From: a virus
Lineage: Duplodnaviria > Heunggongvirae > Uroviricota > Caudoviricetes
Direction: 5' to 3' (one strand)
Virus record (IMG/VR): IMGVR_UViG_3300042901_002340
DNA: 64,000 bases
In this document: in pieces, positions 10,683 to 59,430 of the stretch
Position numbering within the stretch: position 1 is the first letter of the stretch
Layout of the letters: each line of letters begins with the position of its first letter
Notes under the pieces: generated by a model
What the model saw: only the letters and a program-made list of their open reading frames with translations
Database searches by the model: none
Told to the model about the DNA's origin: nothing
Program-made: the position numbers and the translations under genes

Positions 10683-11141
10683 TTATAGCTGCTGTTCTAA
10701 TTCCTCAGTCTCTTCCTCATCATCAGGGGTTTCTTCAGTTTCTACCTCTTCTTCCTCTTCTGTCTCACTATCTTCATTGTCTTCTTCATCATCGTATTCC
10801 TCGTCTTCGTCTTCGTCTTCATCCTCGTCTTCATCAGATTCCATAGGATATTCAAATTCACCCATCAGCCATTCAGAAACTTCCTGTACATCATCCTTGG
10901 ATGTTGCTATGTGATCAGAAGCCCAATCGTGCCCATTATTTAAAAGCTCATCAACCTTATCCGGATCCATCTTTAATATTTCCTCAACATGATGTTTTAT
11001 TGTTGCAAGATTTCTAAAGAACATGTAATGCTTTCTATCGTCACTATTGCTCTCGTTTGTTACTGCTAAAACCTCCTCGTTGTTTACGATTTCTGGTTTT
11101 TCGTTATTTTTGAATTGTTCAAATGAAGCTATTCTTTCCAT
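10683..11141 (-). CDS. putative head-internal protein with acidic tail
   Basis: N-terminal MERIASFEQF motif; ~45-residue D/E-rich C-terminus. Confidence 0.75.
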   Translation of the reverse strand: MERIASFEQFKNNEKPEIVNNEEVLAVTNESNSDDRKHYMFFRNLATIKHHVEEILKMDPDKVDELLNNGHDWASDHIATSKDDVQEVSEWLMGEFEYPMESDEDEDEDEDEDEEYDDEEDNEDSETEEEEEVETEETPDDEEETEELEQQL

Positions 11142-11160
11142 CTTTGTGTATTTTTTTTAA

Positions 11161-11170
11161 TTATATATCC
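11161..11170 (-). promoter_or_regulatory. putative late promoter GGATATATAA
   Basis: Recurrent DGATATATA motif shortly upstream of starts (13 sites). Confidence 0.6.
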
Positions 11171-11218
11171 ATATGAATTAATTTTTATTATATCGAGGTG
11201 CCTTTGTACGATATTATA

Positions 11219-12079
11219 TTAGTCTAGAGATCCGCCGCAAGTTGGGCAGAATTTCCAGTTTTGTTTTTTCATTCTAGTACCACAACCTGTACAATATGAT
11301 CTGATCTCTGATACCTCCACTGGTTTACCAGATCTTGGTAGTATTTTATATTCGGAAGTCCATGATGCATAGGAATTATAAGTTCCATTGTCATTATCAA
11401 AACTCTGGCTGGATTTACCACCTTTCTCTATTCTTCCAGTCTCTATGCTATTAGAAGATTTAGATCTTGTAGAGCTAGAATTAATATCAGATGTTGAATT
11501 ACCAAGATTTGAACAAAAATATGTGTTTGTTGTTCCACTGGTATAAGTTACATCACCTGTGGAATTTGACGTAAAGGTTGAAACCGGAGTGGAATAGTTT
11601 CCATAATCTCTAAAAAATGGAGGAGTGTTTGTTGTGAGAGTGCTGGGAAGACCCCAGGTTGTTACTGTTCCTGTATTAGTCCATGCAAAGTTTTGAAAAT
11701 ACTCAGCATGAAAATCAACTTTCAGATTACCATTTTTTGCAATTGCAGCTTTAGCCCCCGCTGTGTCTTCGACTTCATAGGTGGAGAAAACAAGTTTTTT
11801 GTTTTCGTCTATGAACCGATCAAGGAAATATCTCTGTCCAGGTTTTAAAACCAATCCAGAGGAACTAATGATTTGGCCGTTTATGTAGATCTTAGCTACA
11901 TAAGAAATTTGTGTGGGATTATAGAGCTCAATCTGAAACTCTTGTCCATCTTCCAGATAAACCTTTTCGGCTCCTGTGTTTACGTCGTAAACTTTCTGAC
12001 GATTGCTGGATACCGCGATCCAGGCTTGTGGTTTGTCAACGGAAAGTCCGCTGAGAATACCAGGTTTTTTGTTTTTCAT
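11219..12079 (-). CDS. hypothetical protein with C-terminal zinc ribbon
   Basis: CTGCG...CPTCG; S/T-rich linker; start reassigned to MKNKKPG. Confidence 0.75.
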   Translation of the reverse strand: MKNKKPGILSGLSVDKPQAWIAVSSNRQKVYDVNTGAEKVYLEDGQEFQIELYNPTQISYVAKIYINGQIISSSGLVLKPGQRYFLDRFIDENKKLVFSTYEVEDTAGAKAAIAKNGNLKVDFHAEYFQNFAWTNTGTVTTWGLPSTLTTNTPPFFRDYGNYSTPVSTFTSNSTGDVTYTSGTTNTYFCSNLGNSTSDINSSSTRSKSSNSIETGRIEKGGKSSQSFDNDNGTYNSYASWTSEYKILPRSGKPVEVSEIRSYCTGCGTRMKKQNWKFCPTCGGSLD

Positions 12080-12104
12080 TTTTACCTTATTTATTTTTTT
12101 AAAA

Positions 12105-12178
12105 TCCCATCGATGCTCATTCGAACATCTCAAAGGTCGTTAAACCCGGGACATCAAGTACTAAAGGCACCTTCAATA
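12105..12178 (-). ncRNA. candidate structured 5' leader RNA
   Basis: GC-richer island with two hairpins inside a GUCCC/GGGAU stem, and an arm complementary to the 3' UTR at 11191-11209. Confidence 0.5.
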
Positions 12179-12187
12179 CAATTGATA

Positions 12188-12197
12188 TTATATATCC
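12188..12197 (-). promoter_or_regulatory. putative late promoter GGATATATAA
   Basis: Recurrent motif. Confidence 0.6.
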
Positions 12198-12647
12198 TTA
12201 CCAGGAATCCTCATCATAATCATCATAGGAACTATAGGAATCGCTGGAGTCTTCGTCCCATTCCTCTTCCTCACCTATGAATCCTCTGTCATGTTCTTTA
12301 ATGACGCTTGACCATTCGTCACCATCCTTAAACCAAACATACGTTTGATCAGGTATTTCGCTTACCCATTCAATCTTGGAATCACTTACCCATCCTCCAG
12401 GAATAAACGAGTCTAAATTTTCAATCAGATCCTCAACCTCATTCAGTATATCATTATCGAATGGGTGATCCTCTATATAAATTTCAATATAACCATTGAA
12501 ATTTATATCCAGAGAAGCACTAAACAATGTACAGAATTTTAAGAAATCCTCATTAAGTTCCAAGCCTGATTTAATTTCATCGATCTGATCCTTAAGGAAT
12601 TTCTTATTGGAGGTTAAATCAACGGTTAAAAAATAATTACTTTTCAT
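12198..12647 (-). CDS. acidic hypothetical protein
   Basis: ORF with D/E-rich tail. Confidence 0.7.
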   Translation of the reverse strand: MKSNYFLTVDLTSNKKFLKDQIDEIKSGLELNEDFLKFCTLFSASLDINFNGYIEIYIEDHPFDNDILNEVEDLIENLDSFIPGGWVSDSKIEWVSEIPDQTYVWFKDGDEWSSVIKEHDRGFIGEEEEWDEDSSDSYSSYDDYDEDSW

Positions 12648-12708
12648 TATTTACTTTTTTTTAGTTGTATATACCAAAAAAATTATAAGTTTTATTGGAA
12701 CTATTAAA

Positions 12709-13032: not shown

Positions 13033-13033
13033 A

Positions 13034-13621: not shown

Positions 13622-13629
13622 TGATTTTT

Positions 13630-15201: not shown

Positions 15202-15296
15202 TAATTGTTTTTTGATGTTTAATGATATTTATATCTATCAACAAAATAAAGGTTTCAGTATTATTTCTGAAACCTTTATTTTTTATTCGGTATTTA

Positions 15297-15732: not shown

Positions 15733-15738
15733 AACGAT

Positions 15739-16035: not shown

Positions 16036-16042
16036 GATATTA

Positions 16043-16450: not shown

Positions 16451-16470
16451 TACACCAAAGTTTATTTGAA

Positions 16471-16480: not shown

Positions 16481-16498
16481 AAATAATACTATATATTT

Positions 16499-22562: not shown

Positions 22563-23768
22563 CTAGAACATATCTGGACTTACCCATGAAATTGGAGCAT
22601 CATTTACTTTTTTACATGCTCCACATTTAATTAAATGTTCGTTATTATCATATTTTACCTCATTTATATAATAACCCCTCATTTTAGGTCTTTCCTTAGA
22701 CAAATCTATATCGTTCAAAATTAATTTAACACTACCCTTTTCTATGGCTTTTTTTAATCTGGATCCGAATGATTCCTGATCTTTAGTGTTCCATTCGAAG
22801 CTTTTACTAGTTAGTAACTTAGATAGCGAGGAAAAACCAATATCATCTAATCCTCCCTTCCATGAAAAATCGGAATTGGTTAAGTAGAATTCATAATTAT
22901 AAATATCCTTAGCATCCTTGGTGGCATAATCTTCCAAATCCTCCCTAATCTTGCCCTTCAGTATGAAAGATAGTGGATTCTTATTTTTTATTTTCCATCC
23001 CAGATCGGTAAAACTAGAAACTGTAAATTCCATTTTTAATTGAATATCCTTACCGAATGGTCCCAAAAATTTAATCTTCAATGTATCTTCATCCCCAAAT
23101 CCACTTATCTTCATTTCTAACTTTCCTGAATAATATACATCCCTTGGTTCAGCTAATTTTTTAGGGGCTGGAATCTGATATGGCTTACAATAATAATATC
23201 CCTCTTCGGCAGAATTTGTAACATAGTTGTAAATTCCCCTAGACCCATAAACTCCAACTCCCAATTTATTAGCGGAATCAACCAGATTGTAAAGGTAATC
23301 CGCTCCGTAACAGGCAGTAAAAAAAACTTTAGTTTCTCTTGTAATTATATCCTTTGCATTTTTTAATAAATCAGTAGCATATTTTCTATTTGATTTATCA
23401 TCTTTTTGGGTGATTAGTAGATTTTTTCCATCCCCGTGTGATCCTATAACCAGTTCTTTAACTTTAATTCCCTTATTTTTAAAAGTTTTGATGGCTTCTA
23501 TTGCTTCTACCGATGATCTAAAAACCCCAGTAACCACACCTATTTTTTTAAGAAGATTTACTGCTTTTGTTTCCCATCCCTTTTTCGGGAAGATTAGTGA
23601 AACCCTGATAGGTTTTTCACCAAAAATTTTTACATACAATGAAATTAGAGCAGATAAAGGACTTAAAATTCCTACGGCTTTGGACATATTCATGAATATT
23701 CTCAAAATTTCGGAATTCTCAGACTCGTTTATTTTTTCCCAAGTTTTAAAGTTATACAATTTTTTCAT
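22563..23768 (-). CDS. DUF4347/caspase-fold-like protein with capsid-targeting-like N-terminus
   Basis: LVIGSHG...VFFTACY His/Cys pattern; start reassigned to MKKLYNFKTW. Confidence 0.6.
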   Translation of the reverse strand: MKKLYNFKTWEKINESENSEILRIFMNMSKAVGILSPLSALISLYVKIFGEKPIRVSLIFPKKGWETKAVNLLKKIGVVTGVFRSSVEAIEAIKTFKNKGIKVKELVIGSHGDGKNLLITQKDDKSNRKYATDLLKNAKDIITRETKVFFTACYGADYLYNLVDSANKLGVGVYGSRGIYNYVTNSAEEGYYYCKPYQIPAPKKLAEPRDVYYSGKLEMKISGFGDEDTLKIKFLGPFGKDIQLKMEFTVSSFTDLGWKIKNKNPLSFILKGKIREDLEDYATKDAKDIYNYEFYLTNSDFSWKGGLDDIGFSSLSKLLTSKSFEWNTKDQESFGSRLKKAIEKGSVKLILNDIDLSKERPKMRGYYINEVKYDNNEHLIKCGACKKVNDAPISWVSPDMF

Positions 23769-23772: not shown

Positions 23773-23782
23773 TTATATATCA
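23773..23782 (-). promoter_or_regulatory. putative late promoter TGATATATAA
   Basis: Recurrent motif, 4 nt before the ATG. Confidence 0.6.
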
Positions 23783-24805: not shown

Positions 24806-25117
24806 TTACCAAAATCTTGTTAATTGGTCAATATCTCTGGATTGAAACTGTGCATCTGGGGCCATAACAACTGAAATCCCATCGGATAGCAGGTACAATT
24901 CCTCAAGATATTTAATAACGTCATTGGTTTTAGATTTATCTATTCCAGTTTGATCTATAACATCAGCTGCTAATTGATCAATTGAGGATTCAAAATTTTC
25001 GGTATCGTGAAAATTAAAATACTTCTCATATTTTTTAACCCAATCCTTGATTAGATTCATTTCACTTTCGCTAAGTCCAGCATCTTCAAATTCGGAAAAT
25101 TCCAGTATTATGGACAT
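24806..25117 (-). CDS. putative head-internal protein
   Basis: MSIILEFSEF...LSE N-terminus. Confidence 0.7.
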   Translation of the reverse strand: MSIILEFSEFEDAGLSESEMNLIKDWVKKYEKYFNFHDTENFESSIDQLAADVIDQTGIDKSKTNDVIKYLEELYLLSDGISVVMAPDAQFQSRDIDQLTRFW

Positions 25118-25140: not shown

Positions 25141-25154
25141 GGATATATATATTC
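25141..25154. promoter_or_regulatory. bidirectional late-type promoter GGATATATATATTC
   Basis: Near-palindromic motif between divergent genes 24806..25117 and 25176..25559. Confidence 0.55.
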
Positions 25155-25175: not shown

Positions 25176-25559
25176 ATGAAACATTTAAAAGAGGAAGAGG
25201 AGTTTATTAATGATGATGCCTATCTATCGGATGGAGAACCAGAAGCAGAAGGGTATGAAGATTACGAAGACGACTACAACGAGGAATCTGACTATGACGA
25301 GGACGAAGATAATTCGGACTATGAAGAGGATGAAGAAATTGAAAATCCAGACGAGGAATACGAGGATGACGATGAAGTTGAAGATCCAGACGAGGAATAC
25401 GAGGATGATGAGGACTCAGAGTACGATGACGAATCTGACTATGGTGATAACTTATCCGAACCTAGTGACGCGGAAATAGAAACCGAACACCAAGAAGAAA
25501 CCCCACAATCAAACGATCGAAGGGTTTTATCTTACACAGATTTTTTTAATAAGAATTAA
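25176..25559 (+). CDS. extremely acidic protein
   Basis: About half D/E; MKHLKEEEEFIND start and RRVLSYTDFF end. Confidence 0.8.
   Translation: MKHLKEEEEFINDDAYLSDGEPEAEGYEDYEDDYNEESDYDEDEDNSDYEEDEEIENPDEEYEDDDEVEDPDEEYEDDEDSEYDDESDYGDNLSEPSDAEIETEHQEETPQSNDRRVLSYTDFFNKN
25335..25412 (+). repeat. 2 x 39-bp in-frame tandem repeat
   Basis: Encodes EIENPDEEYEDDD / EVEDPDEEYEDDE. Confidence 0.85.
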
Positions 25560-25783
25560 TCTTTAGTAGTTTTACCAAGATCTCTTCTAATTAGTGATCT
25601 AACATAGTGAGATACCGATACAGGAGCTTCACCTTTAGATAAAGCTTTTTTCGCTATCTTTCTTGTTAGATCACTTAAATCTTCACCAGAAAGCAAAACC
25701 TGGATTTTTTCGTCTTTTTCAGCACTTTCTTCACCTTCGCTTATTTTAGAACTAACTTTTCCGAACTCTTTTAAGTTTTCCAT
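25556..25783 (-). CDS. ribbon-helix-helix-like protein
   Basis: KIQVLLS...VSVSHYVRSLIRRDL. Confidence 0.6.
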   Translation of the reverse strand: MENLKEFGKVSSKISEGEESAEKDEKIQVLLSGEDLSDLTRKIAKKALSKGEAPVSVSHYVRSLIRRDLGKTTKD

Positions 25784-25788: not shown

Positions 25789-27267
25789 TTATTTATTTTT
25801 ATTTTGAAATCTTATTCCCGCATGTGGATTTCCTTTTGCTTTCTTTAAGCTGAAACTATCCTCAGGATTTTTTGTAACTACGAATGCTTTTTCAGGATTT
25901 ACTGATAAACCAACCATTCTCATAAATTCTCTATTCACTAGGAAGGGTGTACTCTTATCTGTTCTGTCGTCTGGAGAAATCTTAACATTAGGAACTATAA
26001 CACCATTGAAATCTATGTCCATCTCAATGATAGGTCTTTTATGTTTTTTGTCACCTACCTCCGGTTCTGAATGACCAACTATTGGATTAACGAATTTCTT
26101 TTTACCTATTGTCCAATAAACTTTGCCACCTTTCTCCTCCACCTTATCCGCATGAACTGTACAAGATTTGGAACCGTTACCAGTATCAAATTTTGCTATA
26201 ATCTCTCCAACTTTTGGGATTTTTAATGTTTCAAGATAACCTATTTCCATATTTGAATATGTCCAATTTTTCTTATTCAGAATATAATCTAAAACATCAT
26301 CAACTATCGGTTTACCTATAGCTTTAGATATTCCCTCCGTTCCTGGGGAAGAATTAACCTCTAATATATAGGGTTTGTTGGTTTTTGAATCTATCATTAT
26401 GTCAACCCCACACCAGTGACATCCAACTGCACTAGCAGCTTTTATTGCTATATCGGAAAGCTCTTTCGTTATCTTGAATTTACCAACAGTTCCTCCCAGT
26501 GAGTAGTTGGTTCTAAAATCTTTTTTAACAGCACCCCTTTTCATAGTTCCAATAATGAATGAATTATTCTTATTATTATTTCTTGGATCTGGGTTAAATT
26601 TCTTAACTACCACCTGTATTCTCAGATCGTAATTGGAGTCTATCTTTTCCTGTATAAGTATCTCATTAGAAGAATCGAGTTTTCTTATGGTTTGATATAC
26701 AGATTTAAGGGAAGCATAAGAATCAACTATGGAAACTCCTATCCCTTGGGTTCCTGACAGAAGTTTCATAATAACCGGGAATTTCCCACCGATAGTTTCC
26801 AAAGCTTTGTCTAGAGAATTTTCATCAGGAACAAGAGCTGACTTAGGAACGGGAAGATCATTAGCTTCCATTATCTGTGATGTAATGAATTTATTTTCAC
26901 AAGCTTCCATAGAAGCTAAGGTATTGACTGTGAAGTATCTAGATTCCTCCAATGTTAAAAGAATCTGTCTGGTATGGGAATTTTCTAGTACCCCTCTTCG
27001 TGGTACAATGACTGTTGAATTTGGATCTATTAGAATTTTTTCCTTACCGGTTTTTAATAAATGCCCATTATAGACTTTCTCTATTATAACATTATTAACA
27101 TCAACTATGTAACATTTAATTCCCCTCTTCTTGCACTCCTTAACAAAGGATTCAGAGGTTTTACTACCTGTTACATTACCAGTAAGAACTACAACTTTTG
27201 TGTTTTCCGTTTTAGCTTCGTTAAGAAAGGAATAAAAGTCCAGTACATTGTTTGATATCATCATCAT
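25789..27267 (-). CDS. rimK: RimK-family ATP-grasp ligase fused to a RimB/retropepsin-like protease domain
   Basis: NKF.T, FPVIMK...GTQG.GV, QEKI, DLRI, FRTNYSLGG, GVDI, LEVNSSPG; C-terminal AKFDTGNG. Confidence 0.88.
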   Translation of the reverse strand: MMMISNNVLDFYSFLNEAKTENTKVVVLTGNVTGSKTSESFVKECKKRGIKCYIVDVNNVIIEKVYNGHLLKTGKEKILIDPNSTVIVPRRGVLENSHTRQILLTLEESRYFTVNTLASMEACENKFITSQIMEANDLPVPKSALVPDENSLDKALETIGGKFPVIMKLLSGTQGIGVSIVDSYASLKSVYQTIRKLDSSNEILIQEKIDSNYDLRIQVVVKKFNPDPRNNNKNNSFIIGTMKRGAVKKDFRTNYSLGGTVGKFKITKELSDIAIKAASAVGCHWCGVDIMIDSKTNKPYILEVNSSPGTEGISKAIGKPIVDDVLDYILNKKNWTYSNMEIGYLETLKIPKVGEIIAKFDTGNGSKSCTVHADKVEEKGGKVYWTIGKKKFVNPIVGHSEPEVGDKKHKRPIIEMDIDFNGVIVPNVKISPDDRTDKSTPFLVNREFMRMVGLSVNPEKAFVVTKNPEDSFSLKKAKGNPHAGIRFQNKNK

Positions 27268-27282: not shown

Positions 27283-27292
27283 GTATATATCT
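27283..27292 (-). promoter_or_regulatory. putative late promoter AGATATATAC
   Basis: Recurrent motif. Confidence 0.6.
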
Positions 27293-35787: not shown

Positions 35788-36324
35788 TTAAGAATAAAAA
35801 ACTTCTTCTATTTGTTTAGGTTCAATGAAAGTTGAAAAATAAGAAACTGATTCAGGGGAAGAAAAAGCTTCCTTTTTCTTGGATGAAGGTATTCCTATTA
35901 TATAATCAATACCATCTAAATTAGTAACACCAGTAACTATATACTCGCTGTCTATGAATAGATTTCTACCCTCTCCACCGTATATATTATCATCCGGTGC
36001 AACATCAGCAGCTTCAACCCTGCTACCTCTAATAGCGTATTGTTCCTTCTCTATTCTTTTTCTTTCTGCATCAAGAGTATCGATGATATGCTGAGGTGCT
36101 TTTTTTCCCTGTGTTGGTAGATCTACAATCATGCTGATTTCCTCCAACTGACCAGTTTTTTGCTGATCTAATAAATCGCTTATATATGAAAATATTTTCG
36201 TTGTTGATACCTCATCTTCAGGATCATTAGAAGGACTTCTTCTAAAATCATCGGCGTTATAAACAGGTATACCGGCCTCATCCAATCCCTCATAGGATTC
36301 AAATTCTAGTAGGTGCTTCATCAT
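35788..36324 (-). CDS. putative head-internal protein
   Basis: MKHLLEFESYEGLDE N-terminus. Confidence 0.7.
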   Translation of the reverse strand: MMKHLLEFESYEGLDEAGIPVYNADDFRRSPSNDPEDEVSTTKIFSYISDLLDQQKTGQLEEISMIVDLPTQGKKAPQHIIDTLDAERKRIEKEQYAIRGSRVEAADVAPDDNIYGGEGRNLFIDSEYIVTGVTNLDGIDYIIGIPSSKKKEAFSSPESVSYFSTFIEPKQIEEVFYS

Positions 36325-36337: not shown

Positions 36338-36347
36338 CTATATATCT
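36338..36347 (-). promoter_or_regulatory. putative late promoter AGATATATAG
   Basis: Recurrent motif. Confidence 0.6.
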
Positions 36348-37655: not shown

Positions 37656-38294
37656 CTATTTTGCTCCCTTTTTTTTCGATATTTTTATCGATTCAACTTC
37701 ACCGACCGGATCAAATTTTATATATGATGTATATTTTTCATCCAGTTCTCTTTTTATACCTCTTCTATTTCTACTTACGTTTATTAAAGGGATCTCATAT
37801 TTACTAAAGAATACGCCATCAAAAACCCAAACCTTAATATTAAAATATTTATTCTCATATAAACCGTAATCTACTGAGCCAATCTTCAAAAAAAATCTAC
37901 ATTCGAATATATGTTTACCTCTAAGATACAATTCAATAAATATCCAATTATTATCGTGTGGCGAAGATAATATATTCTGTCCGAAATTAACGCAATATAT
38001 TATTTTTTTACTATCAAGATCCAAAATCTTATACTCCAATCCAGCCAAATCAAATATAGATTTTATCAGCTCTGGTATATCATCAGCTTCGCTATATAGA
38101 TTCAGAAAGCAACTAAGCTCGCCGGATTCAAATTTTTTCTGACTTTTGATTTCTACCTCGTCATCCTCCCTTACCAATGAAGAAAAATAATCCAGAGAAT
38201 CATGTAATAGATTTCTCTGGATTATTTCTATATTCTTCTGCTGATTTACTTTTTCTTTTACCGATTTTACAAAATCCTCGCTAGATTTTTTCAT
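37656..38294 (-). CDS. hypothetical protein
   Basis: Coupled to adk. Confidence 0.7.
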   Translation of the reverse strand: MKKSSEDFVKSVKEKVNQQKNIEIIQRNLLHDSLDYFSSLVREDDEVEIKSQKKFESGELSCFLNLYSEADDIPELIKSIFDLAGLEYKILDLDSKKIIYCVNFGQNILSSPHDNNWIFIELYLRGKHIFECRFFLKIGSVDYGLYENKYFNIKVWVFDGVFFSKYEIPLINVSRNRRGIKRELDEKYTSYIKFDPVGEVESIKISKKKGAK

Positions 38295-38949
38295 CCTTTT
38301 TCTTTTTAATCACCTTAAGTCCTAATTTTTTTACTATAGATTTAAGTACGCCTTCCATACCAAGATCAGCATCGATTTTTATTAATTTTCTACTCTTCTT
38401 GTAAAAATCGATAAGTGGAAATGTCTTCTCGTTGTATTCGGCAAATCTTTTATCTATAACTTCATCACTAGCATCATCTTTTCTATTCTCCTTTTTAGCT
38501 CTATTTCTTATTCTTTCCTTAGCCTTATCCTCGGGAAGATCCATAAAAATTGCATGATTTAAACCAAGACCCAACTTACCAAGTAAAGAATCAAGTTTTC
38601 TTGCTTGCTTTATAGTTCTAGGATAACCGTCAAAAATTATACCCTTATTCAGATCAAGTTTTTTAAGCTCTTTTCTAAGCATTTTAAGCATCATCTCATC
38701 AGAAATGAACTTTCCACCTTCAACTATTTTTTTTAATTCCGGATCATCAGACTTTCTTATCAAATCGCCAGTAGAAATATGATTAATACCAAATTTCTCA
38801 TTTAATTGCTTCGATAAAGTTCCTTTACCCGATCCAGGAGCTCCTAGCATAACTAGTACATCGCCTTGAGAATCGGGAAGCTCTCTTTCATTTAAGAATT
38901 CGTCGAATTTTTTTACAACTTCATCACTAAACCATTTTTTGTTCTCCAT
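38281..38949 (-). CDS. adk: adenylate kinase (short LID) with N-terminal extension
   Basis: GAPGSGKGT, HISTGDLIR, DGYPRT, RKDD. Confidence 0.93.
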   Translation of the reverse strand: MENKKWFSDEVVKKFDEFLNERELPDSQGDVLVMLGAPGSGKGTLSKQLNEKFGINHISTGDLIRKSDDPELKKIVEGGKFISDEMMLKMLRKELKKLDLNKGIIFDGYPRTIKQARKLDSLLGKLGLGLNHAIFMDLPEDKAKERIRNRAKKENRKDDASDEVIDKRFAEYNEKTFPLIDFYKKSRKLIKIDADLGMEGVLKSIVKKLGLKVIKKKKDEKI

Positions 38950-44511: not shown

Positions 44512-44521
44512 AGATATATAA
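44512..44521 (+). promoter_or_regulatory. putative late promoter AGATATATAA
   Basis: Recurrent motif, 5 nt before the ATG. Confidence 0.6.
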
Positions 44522-44526: not shown

Positions 44527-44832
44527 ATGAAAAATTTAAAAAAATTTGAGGGTTTTATTAATGAGTGGTTGGATTCACCAGGAAGTATCGATGTTCCAGG
44601 CCAATCTTACGAGACCCGAGTAAACAGAAGAAATTATCAAACTGCAGATCCAACAATGCCCGAAACAATAGATGCAATGTATGAAGCAGCTTACTTCCAT
44701 GATTTTCTTGACGAAAGTGGAAAATCTGAAGAATTTAATAAATTTCTAGACGGAGAAAAAAAGACAGGTTCTGATATAACAGAATATCTAAAAACCGCAT
44801 TTCAGAAAAAAAATTCAAAAAAGGAATCATAA
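44527..44832 (+). CDS. putative head-internal protein
   Basis: MKNLKKFEGFINE. Confidence 0.75.
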   Translation: MKNLKKFEGFINEWLDSPGSIDVPGQSYETRVNRRNYQTADPTMPETIDAMYEAAYFHDFLDESGKSEEFNKFLDGEKKTGSDITEYLKTAFQKKNSKKES

Positions 44833-46957: not shown

Positions 46958-47383
46958 TTATCTATAGTCTCCTCTAGCCTCTTTCCTCTTTAGATATTGC
47001 CAAAGAAAGTTTAATCCTTTAGCGTAATCCTTAGCAGATTTAAAAGGGTCCGAGAATTTTTTTATATCGTTACCGTTTCCTTCTTTTACTTCCTTGGACT
47101 TTATTGGATTATATCTCCTCACTGTACCTGAGGGATGTATGGTATAGAAAACATCACCATGCCCAAGTTCTTTTTGTTTCTTAACACTTCTCACAAACTT
47201 CATTGTGTTATTTAGCTCTTGCTGATGTGAAGTGTCCTCATCAAAACCAAGAGCCAATAGTCTTCTATACTCCCTAGATTTTCTTACCCTATCCAATTCA
47301 ATTTCTCTTCTATACTCGGTTTTATATTCATATTCAGGAGAATATGATTTAAAGTCAAGAAGATGTTTCATCTGCTTCTTCAT
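46958..47383 (-). CDS. putative head-internal protein
   Basis: MKHLLDFKSY motif near the N-terminus. Confidence 0.7.
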   Translation of the reverse strand: MKKQMKHLLDFKSYSPEYEYKTEYRREIELDRVRKSREYRRLLALGFDEDTSHQQELNNTMKFVRSVKKQKELGHGDVFYTIHPSGTVRRYNPIKSKEVKEGNGNDIKKFSDPFKSAKDYAKGLNFLWQYLKRKEARGDYR

Positions 47384-48517: not shown

Positions 48518-49063
48518 TTATCTACTTATAATTAATGATTTTTCACTTGAGCCAGTTTGAACCGACCAATTTTTGCCGAGTTGAGACACACATATCGACT
48601 TCATATACTCTATGTATTCACCCTTACCTTTATATTCCAAATTGTCTTGCAAATTATCATACATCCTTACAACCTTAGGATTGAAAGAAAGGTAATCCAG
48701 AACACATTTGAATATCTGCTCCATGAGTCTAGATAGCTCATTTCCATCAACAAGAAATTCAGAACTACTAACCGAAGGTATATCCTCCTTATCAACTGCT
48801 ATATCCTCTATAAGTTCATGGCCTATTTGGTTTATGTTAAGCACACAATAAGAATTTTTAGCACCCTCTATAGGCTCATTCTCAGAATATTTACCTATTA
48901 TAAGATGGTATCCCATTTCATGTTCCTCGTCTTCGCTATCAAGACTGAAGAAATAATGATATACATCACTTACTTTCTTCATCAGGAATGGTGATGTACC
49001 AAATCCGTCATTCTCATTAACCGGACTTGTAAATTGATCAAATGATGCAATAAACTTTTTCAT
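48518..49063 (-). CDS. putative head-internal protein
   Basis: MKKFIASFDQF...VNE. Confidence 0.7.
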   Translation of the reverse strand: MKKFIASFDQFTSPVNENDGFGTSPFLMKKVSDVYHYFFSLDSEDEEHEMGYHLIIGKYSENEPIEGAKNSYCVLNINQIGHELIEDIAVDKEDIPSVSSSEFLVDGNELSRLMEQIFKCVLDYLSFNPKVVRMYDNLQDNLEYKGKGEYIEYMKSICVSQLGKNWSVQTGSSEKSLIISR

Positions 49064-49065: not shown

Positions 49066-51099
49066 TTATTCTTGGTTATTTTTTTCCATTTCTTCATGAA
49101 TTTCAGATTCCGTTATAAGTTCCGAATTTTCAAATTCACCCTCGTCTTCCTCCTTAATTCCAGTACCTTTCTGTGCATCTATTAATGAATTATAAACATT
49201 GGCAACAGCCTGAGGTACAAGCTTTTTGAACCCAACATAATCTTCGGATTCTATTTTCTTTCTAACGTCACTACCACTCGACGATCTTTTAGTTTGTATT
49301 ATCTTTATATCTTCAGGGAAATCACCACCTGCCTTTTTGAGGTAGTCAGCTTGTTTATTGTAGTCCTCTATCCTATCGTCACCAGCCCCTATGGTTTTAG
49401 GAATAAATCCATGTTCCTTAGCCTTTCCGTATATAGGTCCAAGAAGACCCCTATTGACAACAAAATAACCAGAAATCTTTCCAGGATTATCTTTAACTAT
49501 TCCCTCCATATAGCGGGATATTAATTTCTCATCGTATGGGGATTTACCAGATTTATTATGTCCCGGATGAACTACAGCAATAATACTAGGCAGGTCATTC
49601 TCCTTGTATAACTGATCAACCATTTTTAAATGTCCATTATGAAAAGGTTGAAATCTACCAACAAGTAGATTAACAGGTTGGAGCTTTTTTTCTTCCTTGT
49701 CGCTGTCCTCGTTGATTTCTTTTGATTTATCTTTCTTGCTAGTGTCTATCGTTTCTAAAGCTGAAATAAATTCGTTGTAAGAATAAAAAGGATCGTCAGT
49801 ATCAGATTCCTCAGAATTATCAGATTCGCTAGTAACATAATCTATTTTCTTGGAAGATAGATTATTTTTCTTGAAATCCATAAATGATGGTATAGCTTCA
49901 GATTCCTGTATAGCGGGTTTGGTTTCCTTAGCAACAACTCTTTCTATATCGCTAACAACTATATTAAATTGATCTATTATACCAGAAGTTATTATTCCAC
50001 TGGCTCTTTTTCTTATCTTTCTAAATGAGTTAAGCATAAGTTTAAATAGGGACTCGTAGGAATCGTCGGTATCAAGATATTTAAGAACTCTTTTATCCTT
50101 TATCATATCAAGATTCAACCTAAATTCATCTTTCTTCAAGTAATCAGGCTCTTGAAAATCAGCTCCCCTGTATTTATAGGCATATTCACCTAGAAATTTA
50201 ACGAAAACGTCAGACATAAAAGAAATGTATCTCTCGTCGTCAGTATTACCCGAAACGTTAAACGACTCAACACCTTCCTCCAATATGAAATTCATAATAT
50301 CCATTATAGTAAGACCAAGAAAATCGCTAGGTTTTTCATCAGATCTTCTGCTATATTTTTCCTTTGCCATTTCCGTGAATACTGGATCCACCATCTTGGA
50401 TAATATTGGTTCCTTCCCATTATCTTCCTCACCGAATCTAAAAACTATTCCCTCTATCGGTTTATCAAGATCGTTATTAAGTGCACTAGTCTTAGCTTCT
50501 GGATTAAGAACACCAATTATGTACCTAACAAAACTTTTAGTTTTAAATTCGGAAACTAATTGATCAAAAGGAGTTCGAAGAAAATCGAGGATCTGATTTT
50601 TCTGATCCTCGGTTAGCATACCCTGGAATATTATGGGAGGTCTTTCAACACCAAGAATATCAGCCCAGTTATCAAGTTGTTCCTGATCCTGTATTGTCGA
50701 AGCTGGTTTACCATTTTCGTTTTTGGTGTGTATATATGAAAGTATCAGATTGTTCTTAGGCAATCTATCATAAGCAATCTCCACAGGTTGATTATTTGAA
50801 AAATACTCAAGACCGAATCTCCATCCTCTAGGAATCTCATTAAGTATATGCGGAGGAAGTGATTCTATATAATTTATAGGCTTCTCGTAATATTTCATAA
50901 GGGTACGATCAACAAGAGTTATTGGATATCTCTGATCTCTCTTATAAAAATTAAATCTACCAGTTTCTGAATTTCTTTCAAAAACAAAAGCAGAACCGTC
51001 CATTTTTTCATTAATGGTCACATAGGAGTTAAAGAGATTATCGATGAAATCCTTACCCTTTTTGTTATAAATATCATATAAATGACTAATCCCTGCCAT
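49066..51099 (-). CDS. fusion of an RNA-ligase-like nucleotidyltransferase and an HxGH cytidylyl/adenylyltransferase
   Basis: EKMDGS (motif I), GLEYF, EGIVFR (IV), SKMVD (V); C-terminal GRFQPFHNGH, GAGDDR, SGSDVR. Confidence 0.8.
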   Translation of the reverse strand: MAGISHLYDIYNKKGKDFIDNLFNSYVTINEKMDGSAFVFERNSETGRFNFYKRDQRYPITLVDRTLMKYYEKPINYIESLPPHILNEIPRGWRFGLEYFSNNQPVEIAYDRLPKNNLILSYIHTKNENGKPASTIQDQEQLDNWADILGVERPPIIFQGMLTEDQKNQILDFLRTPFDQLVSEFKTKSFVRYIIGVLNPEAKTSALNNDLDKPIEGIVFRFGEEDNGKEPILSKMVDPVFTEMAKEKYSRRSDEKPSDFLGLTIMDIMNFILEEGVESFNVSGNTDDERYISFMSDVFVKFLGEYAYKYRGADFQEPDYLKKDEFRLNLDMIKDKRVLKYLDTDDSYESLFKLMLNSFRKIRKRASGIITSGIIDQFNIVVSDIERVVAKETKPAIQESEAIPSFMDFKKNNLSSKKIDYVTSESDNSEESDTDDPFYSYNEFISALETIDTSKKDKSKEINEDSDKEEKKLQPVNLLVGRFQPFHNGHLKMVDQLYKENDLPSIIAVVHPGHNKSGKSPYDEKLISRYMEGIVKDNPGKISGYFVVNRGLLGPIYGKAKEHGFIPKTIGAGDDRIEDYNKQADYLKKAGGDFPEDIKIIQTKRSSSGSDVRKKIESEDYVGFKKLVPQAVANVYNSLIDAQKGTGIKEEDEGEFENSELITESEIHEEMEKNNQE

Positions 51100-51120: not shown

Positions 51121-52053
51121 TTATTGTATTCTGTTAATCTCTGTAGGTATTTCTAGTCCAACCCTCTGTAAAAATTCCACAAATCTTTCCTTTATTTCTG
51201 GTAATTTGTTTATAAGTTCAAACTCAGGAGAAGTTATTATTTTAAATAACTGTTCAAAAGTTTTAACATCATCAGTAGTATAACCTTTACCTAAAGCAAA
51301 ATCTATAAATTCCTGAGGATCATTAGTAACAAATCTTTCGCTTCCTTCTATTTTCTTAGGATTCTTTAATCTGTCTTTTATCTTCCCTCTGTAAGATTTT
51401 GTATGCCAATATAGACCATCGCTTAAAATAAGAACAGGTGTGTTATAATCCAAGACCTCACCAATTTCATTTCTCTCCATAATCTCCTTCCTTGCCGACA
51501 ATATCGCGGCTAGTAACCAGTTTCTATGTGCCGATTTATATTTACTTTCCCTCGTTTTGTAATTTGGTGAATAATATATAAAATCTGCCCATTTCATGTC
51601 TGACAGTGGTATAAGATCAAGTTGAACTAATCCATTATTCTTGTCACCATTTATTGGCCACCCCAGACTAACTATATTGAGACCCTTCAGATAATTTATC
51701 TCAGTAGTAAATCCAAGAATATCGCCAATACCATTTTTTATTTTATCGTAAATAAACCCAGAACATTCCTTTCTTTCTATCCCATTATCCAGAGAGTACC
51801 AAGTTGCATCATAACCAATATCCAAATCTCCCGATGTATCATCAGGATTTTCTTTCTTCCCTATGCTACCAATGATAACATACTGATCATTTATTTTGTT
51901 TGGGTCTATACCGATGAGAGGAAAAAGATTTTCCTGAATACTTTTTAGCGTTTCGGAAAATTCGTCCTCCCTTATTCTTCTAGAAGTTTTTATAGCTGCC
52001 CCTCCCTCGAATATTGAACTAAATCTAGCAAAATCGATAATCCTATTACTCAT
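51121..52053 (-). CDS. Pol-beta-superfamily nucleotidyltransferase
   Basis: IGSIGKK...SGDLDI and VQLDL third acidic residue. Confidence 0.75.
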   Translation of the reverse strand: MSNRIIDFARFSSIFEGGAAIKTSRRIREDEFSETLKSIQENLFPLIGIDPNKINDQYVIIGSIGKKENPDDTSGDLDIGYDATWYSLDNGIERKECSGFIYDKIKNGIGDILGFTTEINYLKGLNIVSLGWPINGDKNNGLVQLDLIPLSDMKWADFIYYSPNYKTRESKYKSAHRNWLLAAILSARKEIMERNEIGEVLDYNTPVLILSDGLYWHTKSYRGKIKDRLKNPKKIEGSERFVTNDPQEFIDFALGKGYTTDDVKTFEQLFKIITSPEFELINKLPEIKERFVEFLQRVGLEIPTEINRIQ

Positions 52054-52604
52054 TATCTTTTTTTCCTAGTTTTTTTATAATATGAATTCATTACATCCTT
52101 TAGATAATCTCTGTATATTTCCTCATCCTTGGATTTAGGATTTTGAGGTGAAAAATCATCACCAAAATATTTTTTACCTCTCAGAACACCAGACTTATAA
52201 AATTCCTCAGCATCCTGCTCAGTCACATTTTTATTCTCTATATGCTCAGCTTCCCATTTTTTAATAATCTCATCTTTTCTTCTTCTTATTTCGTCCTTGT
52301 CAAGATCCTTCCAAGATTTAGTATCTTCACCAGGGGAAAGAAAATCTATAAAGGAAGCAGTTCCTTTTGCAACAGCTCCTGTAACAACAGCAATTGCGCG
52401 GGAAGCACTTTTCATACTGGAAAGGTTAGGATCAGAATCGCTATAATAGCTGCTATATCCGCTATCACCAATACCTATCTGATTTCCAATTTTTCTAAGC
52501 CATCTTGTGAAAGATGTTTTTCCGTGAGCATCATAATATTCAGAATTTCCATATGATTCTTGGATATTAGATTTATTGAATTCATCAAAAGATTTTATAG
52601 TCAT
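52053..52604 (-). CDS. putative head-internal protein
   Basis: MTIKSFDEF...IQE. Confidence 0.7.
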   Translation of the reverse strand: MTIKSFDEFNKSNIQESYGNSEYYDAHGKTSFTRWLRKIGNQIGIGDSGYSSYYSDSDPNLSSMKSASRAIAVVTGAVAKGTASFIDFLSPGEDTKSWKDLDKDEIRRRKDEIIKKWEAEHIENKNVTEQDAEEFYKSGVLRGKKYFGDDFSPQNPKSKDEEIYRDYLKDVMNSYYKKTRKKR

Positions 52605-52621: not shown

Positions 52622-52631
52622 CTATATATCC
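52622..52631 (-). promoter_or_regulatory. putative late promoter GGATATATAG
   Basis: Recurrent motif heading the 52604-48518 operon. Confidence 0.6.
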
Positions 52632-54397: not shown

Positions 54398-54420
54398 ATG
54401 TTTGTATGATGAGGTTTGTT

Positions 54421-55431: not shown

Positions 55432-55440
55432 TCTATAATT

Positions 55441-55884: not shown

Positions 55885-55885
55885 A

Positions 55886-57188: not shown

Positions 57189-57200
57189 CTTTACAAAATA

Positions 57201-57234
57201 AAAAGGGACAACTCGTCTAAGGAGATGTCCCTTT
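57201..57234. terminator. rho-independent terminator
   Basis: AAAGGGACA...TGTCCCTTT downstream of the SSB gene. Confidence 0.75.
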
Positions 57235-57245
57235 ATTTCTAATTA

Positions 57246-58226
57246 TTATAGGTCGTTATAAAGATCCTCTAATGAATTTGTTGAACTAGGAGCGCTAGTA
57301 GCTGAAGCAGCGGTATTTGCATACCCACTTACTTTAGTGTTACTAACTTCATCATATAGATCGTTAGCAGCATTACTTGTTTCTGGAGCGGGTTGTCTAG
57401 CAGGTGCTGATTGAGGAGCTGGTCTGGAAGGAGCTGAAGCAGCACCACCTAAGATTTCGTTAAGAACTCTTTGCTCTGGAACGCTGTTTCTGATAACCCC
57501 CATAACTTTCTCAGTAAGATCGTCATCCCAATCCTTATAATCAAAGCTTGTTAGATTCTTAGGTCCTTCGTTTAAATAAGCAAGAATAACCTCCATGTCC
57601 TTTTGGTTTTTCTCCATACCTTTACCATTAACCTTGATTGATGTTTTTTCACCAACGAAAGAGCAAAGGTCATAGTTATTCCACTCGCCAACTTTTCTTA
57701 CACTTACCGAAAATTCTCTTCCTTCAAAAAGATCGAAAGGATTGCAGGGAGCACCATATTCAGGTTGCAATTGAGCCTCGATCATATCGTTAAGCTTTTT
57801 ACCAAACTTGAAGATCATAATCTTCCCTTCTAATTCTGGTCTATTCTTATCTTGTACGATTTGAACTAAAGAATAGAAATCCTCCTTCCTTGCGAAGTTT
57901 TTAGATAACTCCTGATCAGCAGCAGAATGTGAATTCTTAAGTTTCCAGAATAAATCCTTTAATACCGATTTTTTACCAACAGTTGAAGGACAATCTGCAG
58001 AAAACCCGTCACCACTTACTGGATCTTTTAAATATACATAATATTTATGGATTTTTGATTTTGCTGGATTCTCCGGATTTGGTAAGAATCTAATCAATGA
58101 TTTATATACACCATCTTTACCATCCTCTGGATATGGTTTATAAAAATCATCTTTGTCTCCTCCTGTTGTTGGAACTTTTGTTACGAATGCCTCTGCATCC
58201 AAATTGAAAATGTCTAAATTACTCAT
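57246..58226 (-). CDS. single-stranded DNA-binding protein (gp32-like)
   Basis: IRFLP, PELEGKI.IFKFGKK, NPFDL.EG..F, NYD; acidic tip LEDLYNDL. Confidence 0.9.
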   Translation of the reverse strand: MSNLDIFNLDAEAFVTKVPTTGGDKDDFYKPYPEDGKDGVYKSLIRFLPNPENPAKSKIHKYYVYLKDPVSGDGFSADCPSTVGKKSVLKDLFWKLKNSHSAADQELSKNFARKEDFYSLVQIVQDKNRPELEGKIMIFKFGKKLNDMIEAQLQPEYGAPCNPFDLFEGREFSVSVRKVGEWNNYDLCSFVGEKTSIKVNGKGMEKNQKDMEVILAYLNEGPKNLTSFDYKDWDDDLTEKVMGVIRNSVPEQRVLNEILGGAASAPSRPAPQSAPARQPAPETSNAANDLYDEVSNTKVSGYANTAASATSAPSSTNSLEDLYNDL

Positions 58227-58303
58227 CTTTCTTAATTTTTTTAATTTGTTTTTTAATTTGTTTTTAATTCTTTAAATTTTACTTTTGTTTTTACTTTTGT
58301 TTC
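58227..58303 (-). promoter_or_regulatory. A-rich repetitive leader; candidate autogenous translational operator of the SSB gene
   Basis: (AAACAAAAGTAA)x2 and (AATTAAAAA)x3 directly before the ATG. Confidence 0.45.
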
Positions 58304-58459
58304 CTCTAATCTTATAATATTACATTTTTTTATTTTTATGGTGAATATCAAACAGCAAAAATACACCAGATAATTATTACCTAGTGTCAAATTGTATATG
58401 ATAAAATATTGATTGCGTGTTCTATGAATTGGGAAGACTCAGACAGAGCCAATAGGACA

Positions 58460-59182
58460 TTACCCCAATTTCTTTGTAGTTTTTTTACTTTTTGATTTTC
58501 CTTTAATAACCTCATTATTTCCTCTTAATTCCTCTTTTAAATACAAATTGACCCAAGTTGAATCGACAACGTCATCTATCGGCTTATTTATTGCCTTAGC
58601 TGGTGTTATCCATTCTGTTTTATTCTCTTCTAATATCTTACAGAATACATTTAAGTTTGTTTCATCCTCTCTTAAATTATATAAGGAGTGATATAATTCA
58701 TCCTTTTTTGCGTTACCCTTTACTGCGAATTTTTTTAAAGTTGTTGGTGAAAAAACATAAAAGTTTTCACTTCCAATTCTATCCATTATTCTTTCTCTCA
58801 GTAAGGCTGTCGCCATAGATATATCTACAAGTGAGTTGCCATTAGACGAAAAACTTAGACCCTCCATTGCTACGTGGAATGGTTCATCGCCCATAACTTC
58901 TAATATAGAACTCCAAAGAACTTCAACAACTTCTAAGAAGTAATCCATTTTTTCTCTTTCCCTAGCAGAATATTCTGTGGTAAATTCTTGTTTTTTTAAT
59001 ACCTTTATAACAAAGCTATCATCAGAATCAAGTATAAAATATGGTTTTTTCTTATTCTTTAATAAAGATTCAAACGTTCTGTCCGATCTTGAAACTGATC
59101 CCCATATATATCTATTATTCTTGAAACAGCAGAATGCGGGGGAGTTCAGAGAAAAGTCGATGCCAACGCAACGTAAATTCAT
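58460..59182 (-). CDS. RuvC-like Holliday junction resolvase
   Basis: GIDFSLNSPA, MEGLSF, P..LKKFA.KGNA.KD, DD.VDS. Confidence 0.8.
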   Translation of the reverse strand: MNLRCVGIDFSLNSPAFCCFKNNRYIWGSVSRSDRTFESLLKNKKKPYFILDSDDSFVIKVLKKQEFTTEYSAREREKMDYFLEVVEVLWSSILEVMGDEPFHVAMEGLSFSSNGNSLVDISMATALLRERIMDRIGSENFYVFSPTTLKKFAVKGNAKKDELYHSLYNLREDETNLNVFCKILEENKTEWITPAKAINKPIDDVVDSTWVNLYLKEELRGNNEVIKGKSKSKKTTKKLG

Positions 59183-59193
59183 ATAATTATTTG

Positions 59194-59430
59194 TTACTGG
59201 TTAATATCCTGTTTTTGTCCAACCGAATTTGTTGTTCCATAAACTTTAGATAATTTACCGAAACAGGTCTTAACTTGCTCCTCAGTAAGACAATCTATAA
59301 TATCGTCAAGGACTCTTCTATCGTTACCACAAGCTGCGATAAGTAGATTTTTCATATGATCTTTCTCACCATATAGCGGTTGACCATATTTTGCTTCATT
59401 TAATTCTTTTAAATCGGAGAATGTTTTCAT
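59194..59430 (-). CDS. putative head-internal protein
   Basis: MKTFSDLKELNE, the closest match to the T4 CTS. Confidence 0.7.
   Translation of the reverse strand: MKTFSDLKELNEAKYGQPLYGEKDHMKNLLIAACGNDRRVLDDIIDCLTEEQVKTCFGKLSKVYGTTNSVGQKQDINQ

Follow-up and report, generated by a model that had tools for sequence, protein, structure and literature searches.

A short N-terminal peptide tag is carried by many otherwise unrelated proteins of an uncultured phage and is probably a capsid-targeting propeptide of the type of the T4 capsid targeting sequence (CTS), greatly expanded in number. The window, a stretch of 64,000 nucleotides, is part of a complete virus record of 430,120 bp, whose closest public counterparts, at 35–42% identity, come from uncultured huge phages. 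The enrichment tests were run on the 614 ORFs of the whole 430-kb record. The consensus of the tag was M-x-x-[ILV]-x-x-[FY]-x-x-[FYW], frequently followed by [IL]-N-E, and a logo over 62 N-termini showed I/L at position 4, F/Y at position 7, and F/Y/W at position 10.

In a fixed N-terminal register, the motif was counted 30 times, compared with 1.4 ± 1.2 expected from within-protein shuffles and 4.1 ± 1.8 expected from column shuffles, while 61 matches were found in any register against 12–15 expected from shuffles. Starts of the loose motif occurred at a rate of 14 per 1000 positions at residues 1–5 and approximately 2 per 1000 elsewhere. At a PSSM score of at least 10 bits, 40 N-terminal matches were obtained, as opposed to 10 among 108,013 internal positions. 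When every ATG in the six frames was scanned, 38 of the 40 matches were judged to be real gene starts from the ORF length and the small number of open codons upstream. The N-terminal enrichment was approximately 80-fold and the position was strictly N-terminal. Predicted carriers number about 41 genome-wide at strict scoring, with about 45–50 above chance and about 40–60 overall, corresponding to 7–10% of the proteome. The first-pass annotation had listed about 15–19 unrelated tagged proteins; its motif was real and far above chance, but the number, taken from the window, was an under-count.

The same annotation had proposed that the tag also works at the C-terminus and had listed an internal copy, but function at either place was not supported. 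C-terminal matches to the loose regular expression were at chance level (28 seen, 22 expected, P = 0.13), and C-terminal copies at a core PSSM score of at least 9 were absent. The best C-terminal look-alike, VLSYTDFFNKN in the gene at 25176, was not significant, and the internal copy at 49066 (IPSFMDF), scoring 8.7, was one of 23 internal matches of at least 8 and was not above chance.

The tagged genes in the window are listed in Table 1. All 18 peptides quoted in the first-pass annotation were present at their genes, and the starts that it gave are the low coordinates of the genes, since most tagged genes lie on the minus strand. Its RimK and Adk labels were borne out by Pfam matches (RimK at 1e-34 for the ATP-grasp enzyme at 25789), while 'NTase' and 'caspase-fold' found no support in Pfam or PHROG. 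The protein at 10683 had no match in Pfam or PHROG. The gene at 22563 has its tagged start at the ATG of position 23768 rather than at the upstream TTG, with 13 nt from the first base of GATATATA to the ATG. A palindromic AT stretch is common to the divergent genes at 24806 and 25176.

Table 1. Genes of the window with the N-terminal tag, its weak or variant forms, and the upstream promoter motif (window coordinates).
Coordinates	Strand	Protein	Length (aa)	Tag	Promoter motif	Remark
10683..11141	-	orphan	152	MERIASFEQF...	GATATATA at 11162-11169	
22563..23768	-	orphan	401	MKKLYNFKTWEKINE	GATATATA at 23774-23781	
24806..25117	-	orphan	103	MSIILEFSEF	AATATATA at 25146-25153	
25176..25559	+	acidic protein	127	MKHLKEEEEFIND	GATATATA at 25142-25149	degenerate N-terminal tag
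25556..25783	-		75	MENLKEFGKV		loose form; second aromatic absent; doubtful member
25789..27267	-	RimK-type ATP-grasp enzyme	492	VLDFYSFLNE, residues 8-17	GATATATA at 27284-27291	
35788..36324	-	orphan	178	MMKHLLEFESY	GATATATA at 36339-36346	
38281..38949	-	adenylate kinase (Adk)	222	VKKFDEFLNE, residues 12-21		Pfam ADK
44527..44832	+		101	MKNLKKFEGFINE	GATATATA at 44513-44520	best-scoring tag of the genome
44832..45815	+	orphan	327	MRNVQKFNGWVNE		immediately downstream of 44527, same strand
46958..47383	-	orphan	141	MKKQMKHLLDFKSY		
48518..49063	-		181	MKKFIASFDQF..VNE		weak tag; regex match only, core score 5.0
51121..52053	-		310	MSNRIIDFARFSSIFE		weak tag; 'NTase' label not confirmed
52053..52604	-		183	MTIKSFDEF..IQE	GATATATA at 52623-52630	
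59194..59430	-		78	MKTFSDLKELNE	GATATATA at 59450-59457	variant tag, T4 register

After removal of the tag, the 41 best-scoring carriers gave 41 BLASTP singletons, with no pair at E 1e-3 or better, and the carriers span unrelated Pfam folds, namely, ADK, ATP-grasp, CHAP, and OmpA. On this comparison, the tag is portable, that is, one leader on otherwise unrelated proteins. In Adk, it is held in a 33-residue N-terminal extension, modelled with a pLDDT under 50 compared with 86–92 for the core, and the Pfam ADK model begins after it, at residue 34. It is thus barely credible that the carriers are diverged paralogues with an N-terminal domain common by descent and a tag that is not portable, even though some neighbouring tagged genes, such as the CHAP and glucosaminidase-like ones, have near-identical upstream regions and tags.

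The tag of Adk was kept in approximately 117 orthologue clusters, and that of the ATP-grasp enzyme was kept together with its promoter in 22 distinct relatives, with L/I-N-E nearly invariant on the orthologues of both. In these two enzymes, the tag lies 7–11 residues in from the start, and the preceding residues vary freely in relatives. In a 149-kb distant relative, 13 of 154 genes were tagged, six of them within a run of seven adjacent genes. Orthologues throughout a wide clade have kept the tag.

The tagged genes were strongly linked to a promoter motif, as the first-pass annotation had noted. An exact GATATATA lay within 80 nt upstream of 23 of 42 tagged genes and 47 of 572 untagged genes (OR 13.5, P = 5e-13), and at the operon level, [GA]ATATATA stood ahead of 36 of 41 tagged and 137 of 573 untagged genes (P = 2e-16). 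The same motif stands ahead of the sheath, portal, protease, and fibre genes, and its common use suggests that the tagged genes are late and expressed together with the head genes. In the head module, tagged genes lie directly 3' of the capsid gene, and in relatives, they are also found between portal and protease, the place of gp67 and gp68 in T4.

In twelve genes, only 4 nt separate GATATATA from the ATG, hinting at mRNAs that are leaderless or nearly so. This spacing and the promoter link could be read as signs that the pattern is a by-product of late expression, arising from a need of translation start or of leaderless mRNAs or from an AT-rich 5' codon bias, with no protein signal; moreover, K, N, I, and F are frequent at protein N-termini in AT-rich genomes. 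However, synonymous codons at the conserved tag residues followed genome usage (TTT 19 and TTC 13; GAA 9 and GAG 9), and because they vary freely, selection acts on the peptide. Column-preserving shuffles also left most of the 30 matches unaccounted for, the sheath, portal, fibre, and protease genes share the promoter without the tag, and the inward position of the tag in Adk and the ATP-grasp enzyme, behind variable residues, does not fit a start-codon effect. Such a by-product is therefore very improbable.

The head machinery supplied a further link. A 654-aa protein at genome positions 286176–288140 is the predicted head maturation protease (Peptidase_S77, PF03420, 34.1 bits with a cut-off of 27; phrog_207 at 1.4e-38), and it had no PDB sequence match at E 0.01. 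A gp23-family capsid protein, which aligns with T4 gp23 from its N-terminus (PF07068, 137 bits, 9e-41), and a gp20-family (portal) gene are also encoded. The S77 protease is fused to a 13-copy, 14-residue repeat (..I-S-Y-S-E-Y-L-A-E..), modelled at very low confidence (pLDDT approximately 25), and the repeat unit of this scaffold-like tail is the tag core, aromatic-x-x-aromatic-[ILV]-x-E. The pattern [FY]xx[FYW][ILV]xE was found 53 times genome-wide, of which 17 were N-terminal, 13 were in the protease protein at exact 14-residue spacing, and 23 were elsewhere, where 19 were expected. The protease-scaffold protein was also the richest in [ILVF][NSDTA]E genome-wide (23 seen, 4.4 expected, P = 4e-10). 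The repeat was kept in relatives whose protease protein is just 36–43% identical. In distant relatives, the scaffold repeat is Y-x-E-H, while the tags are still F-x-x-F; thus, the tag is not a strict copy of the repeat.

The first-pass proposal of a T4-like, portable, clipped tag is supported at the level of sequence by several independent lines, namely, the head genes, the common heptapeptide, the concentration of hydrophobic-x-Glu sites in the protease protein, the late promoter, the lack of paralogy, the conservation on orthologues, and the 149-kb relative, while C-terminal and internal use and NTase and caspase-fold cargo found no support. Under the capsid-targeting reading, the tagged proteins would be made late, and the two aromatics together with the hydrophobic residue three positions earlier probably line one side of a short helix. 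Through this helix, the protein would attach to the scaffold core of the prohead during assembly, and this core would include the protease-fused repeat bearing the heptapeptide of the tag. Once the shell is closed, the protease would cut after [ILV]-x-Glu, so that the scaffold repeat is chopped to short peptides and the cargo is freed from the tag. The cargo would then stay in the head with the DNA, and, by analogy with the T4 internal proteins and Alt, at least part of it may be ejected into the next host. Among the tagged proteins are a CHAP protein, one with an OmpA-like domain, and one with a glucosaminidase match below threshold; Pfam showed no signal-type domain on these, and T7 gp16 is an earlier case of a wall hydrolase carried in the capsid.

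Several observations count against this reading. Hydrophobic-x-Glu stood exactly at tag positions 8–10 in 15 of 41 tags, while in approximately 10 of 41 none was present within 20 residues. Adk and similar housekeeping-type enzymes are unexpected as cargo, and the carrier share of the proteome is far above the handful of T4. The Y-x-E-H form of the repeat in distant relatives and the very low confidence of the repeat model also count against it.

A role as a protease-recognition propeptide only, zymogen-like or for timing, cut by the S77 or another protease and having no part in head entry, is improbable. It fits the hydrophobic-x-Glu at or near the tag end in most carriers (ending within 20 residues after the first aromatic in approximately 28 of 41 tags) and the enrichment of such sites in the scaffold-like tail of the protease itself. 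However, T4 gp21 is not known to be active outside proheads, and cleavage would thus itself imply head entry. Moreover, a third of the tags had no adjacent site, and the best-conserved positions were the two aromatics and the upstream I/L rather than the cut site. In the T4 CTS, residues 4 and 7, the equivalent positions, confer targeting, while residues 8 and 10 serve processing (PMC9026906).

The tag could also be an address to a destination other than the capsid, such as a compartment of late replication or assembly, a phage chaperone, or the periplasm by an unconventional route, and this is unlikely as well. The model shows an amphipathic, flexible tag, and the Adk gene lies directly after a ribonucleotide reductase gene in a nucleotide-metabolism operon. 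Some carriers would act on the cell wall (the CHAP, OmpA-like, and glucosaminidase-like proteins). On the other hand, the ATP-dependent Adk and ATP-grasp enzymes would be useless in the periplasm, and the acidic, amphipathic character of the tag is unlike Sec or Tat signals. Furthermore, the heptapeptide is common specifically to the head protease repeat and the T4 head cut sites, and tagged genes lie within the head gene cluster.

Since the tag closely resembles the head-loading-and-clip signal of T4, the packaged proteins could probably be read from sequence. If its action is that of the T4 signal, sequence alone would be enough to list the proteins that the 430-kb clade packages and possibly injects, comprising 40–60 proteins, mostly without known function, together with adenylate kinase, the ATP-grasp ligase, and wall-acting enzymes. 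Such a list would name specific candidates for effectors of host takeover and anti-defence, and it would indicate that the CTS principle can extend to a tenth of a proteome. The tag would also be a small natural device for bringing foreign proteins into large capsids. The fusion of the repeat to the protease suggests a simple way of recruitment, scaffold-repeat mimicry. A bolder scheme is put forward only tentatively: the protease may carry its own scaffold as the 14-residue repeat, with the tag as a free-standing mimic of one unit, so that any protein gaining the approximately 10-residue tag and the GATATATA promoter would join the core during assembly and be freed by the same cut. With such plug-in delivery, each newly infected cell might receive 40–60 proteins, among them adenylate kinase, the ATP-grasp ligase, and cell-wall hydrolases, and the injected proteome of uncultured giant phages might be read in this way.

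The closest known system is the T4 CTS of IPII and IPIII, with related leaders on IPI and Alt. It is removed by the gp21 protease and is likewise N-terminal, approximately 10–13 residues long, portable, and borne by late proteins; with Alt, enzyme cargo has a precedent in T4, and genes of the gp21, gp23, and gp20 families occur in this phage as in T4. At the level of sequence, both tags have an aromatic/hydrophobic pair three apart, with [IL]-x-Glu directly behind it in part of the tags here. In the T4 sequences checked, ipII and ipIII begin MKTYQEFIAE and gp23 is cut between FGSFLTE and A; the tag core fits both YQEFIAE and FGSFLTE, and gp21 cuts after L/I-x-E (PMC9026906). Compared with the T4 CTS, the tag here is three residues longer, carries the aromatics at positions 7 and 10 with an additional I/L at position 4, favours the ending I/L-N-E over I-A-E, and is not always at the extreme N-terminus (Adk and ATP-grasp). 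Its carriers number approximately 41–60, including metabolic and wall-acting enzymes, and its packaging and cleavage are predicted.

The S77 protease domain resembles that of the T4 prohead core (gp21 with gp22, gp67, and gp68), which is broken down by cuts at many L/I-x-E sites, and its partner region, like gp22, is helical, Glu-rich, and dense in hydrophobic-x-Glu sites. The protease has an N-terminal L/I-x-E near residues 9–12, where T4 gp21 has LIE-9. In contrast to T4, protease and scaffold-like region form a single polypeptide here, and T4 gp22 is without the regular 14-residue repeat with Y-S-E-Y-L-A-E. The cut motif of phiKZ is S/A/G-x-E, unlike here, and we know of no short common N-terminal address motif reported for phiKZ, 201phi2-1, or SPN3US. 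These three giant phages have propeptide-bearing head, inner-body, and ejection proteins; dozens of their head proteins are processed after Glu by a gp21-related protease, and the host receives many of them by ejection (PMC9026906; PMC7411985). In their head genes, the divergence from T4 is far greater than in those of the present phage.

The window corresponds to the reverse strand of positions 351430–415429 of a complete, 430,120-bp virus record with direct terminal repeats and 35% G+C. The gene set comprised 614 ORFs from a simple codon-usage caller, covering 90% of the genome, with 564 of them on one strand. When public phage records were compared by head protease protein, the closest were the uncultured metagenomic huge phages LR756500–LR756504 and LR745206 (35–42% identical), and no cultured close relative was found among them. 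The ribonucleotide reductase gene was closest to its counterparts in Tenacibaculum and Cellulophaga phages, which points to a Bacteroidota host.

All tag peptides quoted in the first-pass annotation were found in the sequence. Genome-wide, [ILV]xx[FY]xx[FWY] started at 14 per 1000 positions in residues 1–5, compared with approximately 2 per 1000 elsewhere. Among the 62 N-terminal matches, 33 shared the register M-x-x-[IL]-x-x-[FY]-x-x-[FYW], and preferences were observed for K/E at position 2, N/H/R at position 3, and I/L-N-E at positions 11–13. A tag PSSM, trained on 30 fixed-register cases and applied at ≥10 bits, matched 40 N-terminal positions versus 10 of 108,013 internal positions, several of the latter being mis-called starts. 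A six-frame scan of all ATGs also gave 40 matches, 38 of which were judged real gene starts. The 30 fixed-register matches compared with 1.4 ± 1.2 after within-protein shuffling of residues 2–16 and 4.1 ± 1.8 after shuffling within alignment columns, while 61 any-register matches were observed versus 12–15 expected. From the PSSM, ATG-scan, and shuffle counts, about 45–50 proteins were tagged above chance, and 41 passed a stricter core score. The earlier proposal of 15–19 tagged proteins, made at the level of the window, was too low.

At conserved tag residues, synonymous codons matched genome usage (TTT 19 and TTC 13 for Phe at position 7; GAA 9 and GAG 9 for Glu at position 8; ATA, TTA, ATT, GTA, and CTA at the I/L position), and selection therefore acts on the peptide. 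Codon usage and the column-preserving shuffles ruled out a nucleotide-level signal, and an expression artefact is accordingly disfavored as the source of the pattern. Descent of the carriers from a common tagged ancestor is disfavored as well, since all-against-all BLASTP of the 41 carriers without their tags returned 41 singletons at E 1e-3, which ruled out paralogy. The carriers that could be named have unrelated folds (Table), and the adenylate kinase (Adk) and RimK-type identities assigned earlier were upheld, while the labels "NTase" and "caspase-fold" found no support in Pfam or PHROG. The majority of carriers were orphans with no match in either database. The CHAP and glucosaminidase-like genes have near-identical tags (MERLKSFNEFINE and MENLKSFGEFINE) and upstream regions, and the two products may be hydrolases of the cell wall that are carried by the virion.

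In Adk, the Pfam domain begins only at residue 34, and an AlphaFold model based on 47 orthologues gave pLDDT values of 40–50 for residues 1–30 versus 86–92 for the kinase core. This extension is kept in about 117 distinct orthologue clusters (66–99% identical), with the consensus I-K-x-F-x-x-F-[LI]-N-E-R-E-L-P-D ahead of the P-loop, and the tag Glu is the same in 116 of the 117 clusters. Similarly, the tag core [VIL]xx[FY]xx[FY][LI]NE of the ATP-grasp protein is conserved in 22 distinct relatives (58–99% identical), in which the residues ahead of the tag vary freely; all 22 have [GA]ATATATA 24–34 nt upstream.

The tag had also been proposed to act at C-termini and internally, and neither use stood out from background. 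No C-terminal copy reached a core score of ≥9, and a loose regular expression gave 28 matches versus 22 expected (P = 0.13); at a threshold of 8, there were 6 versus 1.7, so that any excess depended on the threshold. The internal copy cited for the gene at 49066 was one of about 23 internal matches at its score. This copy, IPSFMDF, lies at residue 403 in the inter-domain linker of a fusion protein (Table) and may be left over from a tagged gene that was formerly separate.

Coordinates of selected tagged genes, promoter-like motifs, head genes, and other features (L numbers are our handles for genome loci outside the window)
Feature	Coordinates	Strand	Remarks
Adenylate kinase	window 38281–38949	-	tagged; Pfam ADK, 1e-38
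RimK-type ATP-grasp	window 25789–27267	-	tagged; Pfam RimK, 1e-34
CHAP domain protein	genome 113276–114115 (L009)		tagged; Pfam
Glucosaminidase-like protein	genome 117677–118357 (L009)		tagged; weak match, below Pfam cut-off
OmpA-like peptidoglycan-binding domain protein	genome, outside window		tagged
RNA-ligase-like and cytidylyltransferase/HIGH-NTase-like fusion	window 49066–51099		677 aa; domains 26–225 and 478–515
GATATATA examples	window 23774–23781; 44513–44520		spacing to ATG
Divergent tagged gene	window 24806–25117	-	
Divergent tagged gene	window 25176–25559	+	
Palindrome GATATATATATT	window 25142–25153		between the divergent tagged genes
Three homing-endonuclease-like genes	genome 194092–206939 (L012)		GATATATA 28 nt upstream of each
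856-aa protein	genome 268251–270821 (L022:1251–3821)		putative late-promoter motif present
Head protease protein, 654 aa	genome 286176–288140 (L006:15176–17140)		S77 domain, repeat, conserved C-terminal domain

The association of tagged genes with the motif GATATATA, reported in the first-pass annotation, was confirmed. The exact 8-mer was found ≤80 nt upstream of 23 of 42 tagged versus 47 of 572 untagged genes (OR 13.5, P = 5e-13), and on allowing [GA]ATATATA and tight operons, these numbers became 36 of 41 versus 137 of 573 (P = 2e-16). On the main coding strand, the motif is present 70 times, versus 23 times on the opposite strand. As it precedes genes for the tail sheath, one portal, the head protease, a fiber-like protein, and several homing endonucleases, its placement fits a late promoter, for which the T4 analogue is TATAAATA. 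The tag is not merely a late-gene feature, because canonical late structural proteins are without it.

The spacing between GATATATA and the ATG fell into two classes genome-wide. In the short class of 12 genes, most of which are tagged, the ATG follows the motif after only 4 nt, which suggests leaderless or near-leaderless late mRNAs; in the other class, the first base of the motif lies about 22–37 nt upstream of the ATG. The palindrome GATATATATATT reads GATATATA on the plus strand and AATATATA on the minus strand, and looks like a late promoter that the two divergent genes share and that acts in both directions. In the L012 locus, two of the homing-endonuclease-like genes have the common start MARKEKKFHY, and the first gene matched a PHROG homing-endonuclease family (1e-39); it seems that late promoters drive homing endonuclease expression in this phage. 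Moreover, the minority strand had an excess of tagged genes (14 of 50 minus versus 27 of 564 plus, P = 6e-7), and these may have entered the genome as autonomous cassettes in the opposite orientation, each under its own late promoter.

The genome encodes a portal and a Gp23-family capsid protein (137 bits), whose alignment to T4 gp23 starts at residue 5. The capsid protein begins with MKLINE and has SLNE at residues 40–43. In the head protease protein, the Peptidase_S77/"head maturation protease" domain spans residues 21–178, and an LNE at residues 10–12 is conserved in relatives; no match was found on comparing this protein with PDB sequences. When [ILVF][NSDTA]E sites were counted without bias over all 614 proteins, it ranked first, with 23 versus 4.4 expected (P = 4e-10), owing to a tandem array at residues 298–472 of 13 units of 14 residues with the consensus N-L-D-K-x-I-S-Y-S-E-Y-L-A-E. 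Second, in this count as well as for [ILV]NE sites (7 versus 1.2 expected), was the 856-aa protein encoded directly upstream of the portal genes. It had no family match except a weak SH3-like one and is a candidate for a further scaffold protein or an internal protein of the head.

Every array unit contains aromatic-x-x-aromatic-[ILV]-x-E, the core of the tag. The proteome contains 53 copies of this heptapeptide, of which 17 are at N-termini, 13 in the array, and 23 elsewhere, where 19 are expected from composition. The array and the protein layout are conserved in relatives whose protease proteins are 36–43% identical, and the protein resembles a fusion of protease and scaffold that would be cleaved to 14-mers. 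Only 2 units scored above the 99.9th percentile of the tag PSSM, because the Y and A of the repeat stand at positions where the PSSM favors F and N; thus, tag and repeat are similar at the level of pattern, not near-identical. Co-variation of tag and repeat was not seen in distant relatives, in which the repeat is Y-x-E-H-[VI]-A-E and the tags stay F-x-x-F. The AlphaFold model of the protein was set aside (mean pLDDT 43; repeat drawn as long helices at about 25). We infer that the tag would work through mimicry of this protease-fused scaffold repeat; the alternative that it is a propeptide for the protease only is disfavored.

The three genes that follow the capsid gene start with the tag variants MKIIPSFEDFEE, MTLKFKEWDHINE, and MITFNSFRLLE, and for one of them, PHROG gave a weak match to "head morphogenesis". 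Distant relatives have small tagged genes in the interval from portal to protease, the position occupied in T4 by core genes 67 and 68. The PSSM trained on the 430-kb genome was also applied to a fragment of 149 kb from a distant relative, whose protease protein shows 41% identity. There, 13 of 154 genes were tagged, with 5.6 matches per 1000 N-terminal positions versus 0.28 per 1000 internal ones, and GATATATA occurred 0 and 32 times on the two strands. Six tagged genes fell within a run of seven neighboring genes, reminiscent of the T4 internal-protein locus. An address for another cellular destination is disfavored, and the tag is probably an expanded T4-style capsid-targeting propeptide, whose carriers would be cleaved, packaged, and ejected.

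The principle is already known from T4, and a review (PMC9026906) has raised the idea that with the capsid targeting sequence (CTS), T4-like phages may be able to load a variety of proteins. The present system is new in its scale, its putative enzyme cargo, its longer register, the 14-residue repeat that is fused to the protease and contains the tag heptapeptide, and its conservation over a large uncultured clade; the literature on huge phages and megaphages yielded no description of a tag of this kind. In the T4 record, MKTYQEFIAE starts two genes at 65.7–66.4 kb, the gp23 maturation site is FGSFLTE|A, gp24 starts with MAKINE, gp21 has LIE at residues 7–9, and gp22 is rich in [IL]xE. T4 gp21 cleaves after L/I-x-E, the internal proteins co-purify with the scaffold protein gp22, and the 10-residue CTS directs targeting mainly via residues 4 and 7 and processing via residues 8 and 10 (PMC9026906). 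A hydrophobic-x-Glu is absent nearby in about a third of the present tags, and, speculatively, cleavage in the MKH[IL]x[ILM]FE subclass may occur at [ILM]-F-E instead. The tag has determinants corresponding to those of the CTS, namely, aromatics at 7 and 10, I/L at 11, and Glu at 13; unlike in T4, however, these are shifted by three residues and joined by an additional I/L at position 4.
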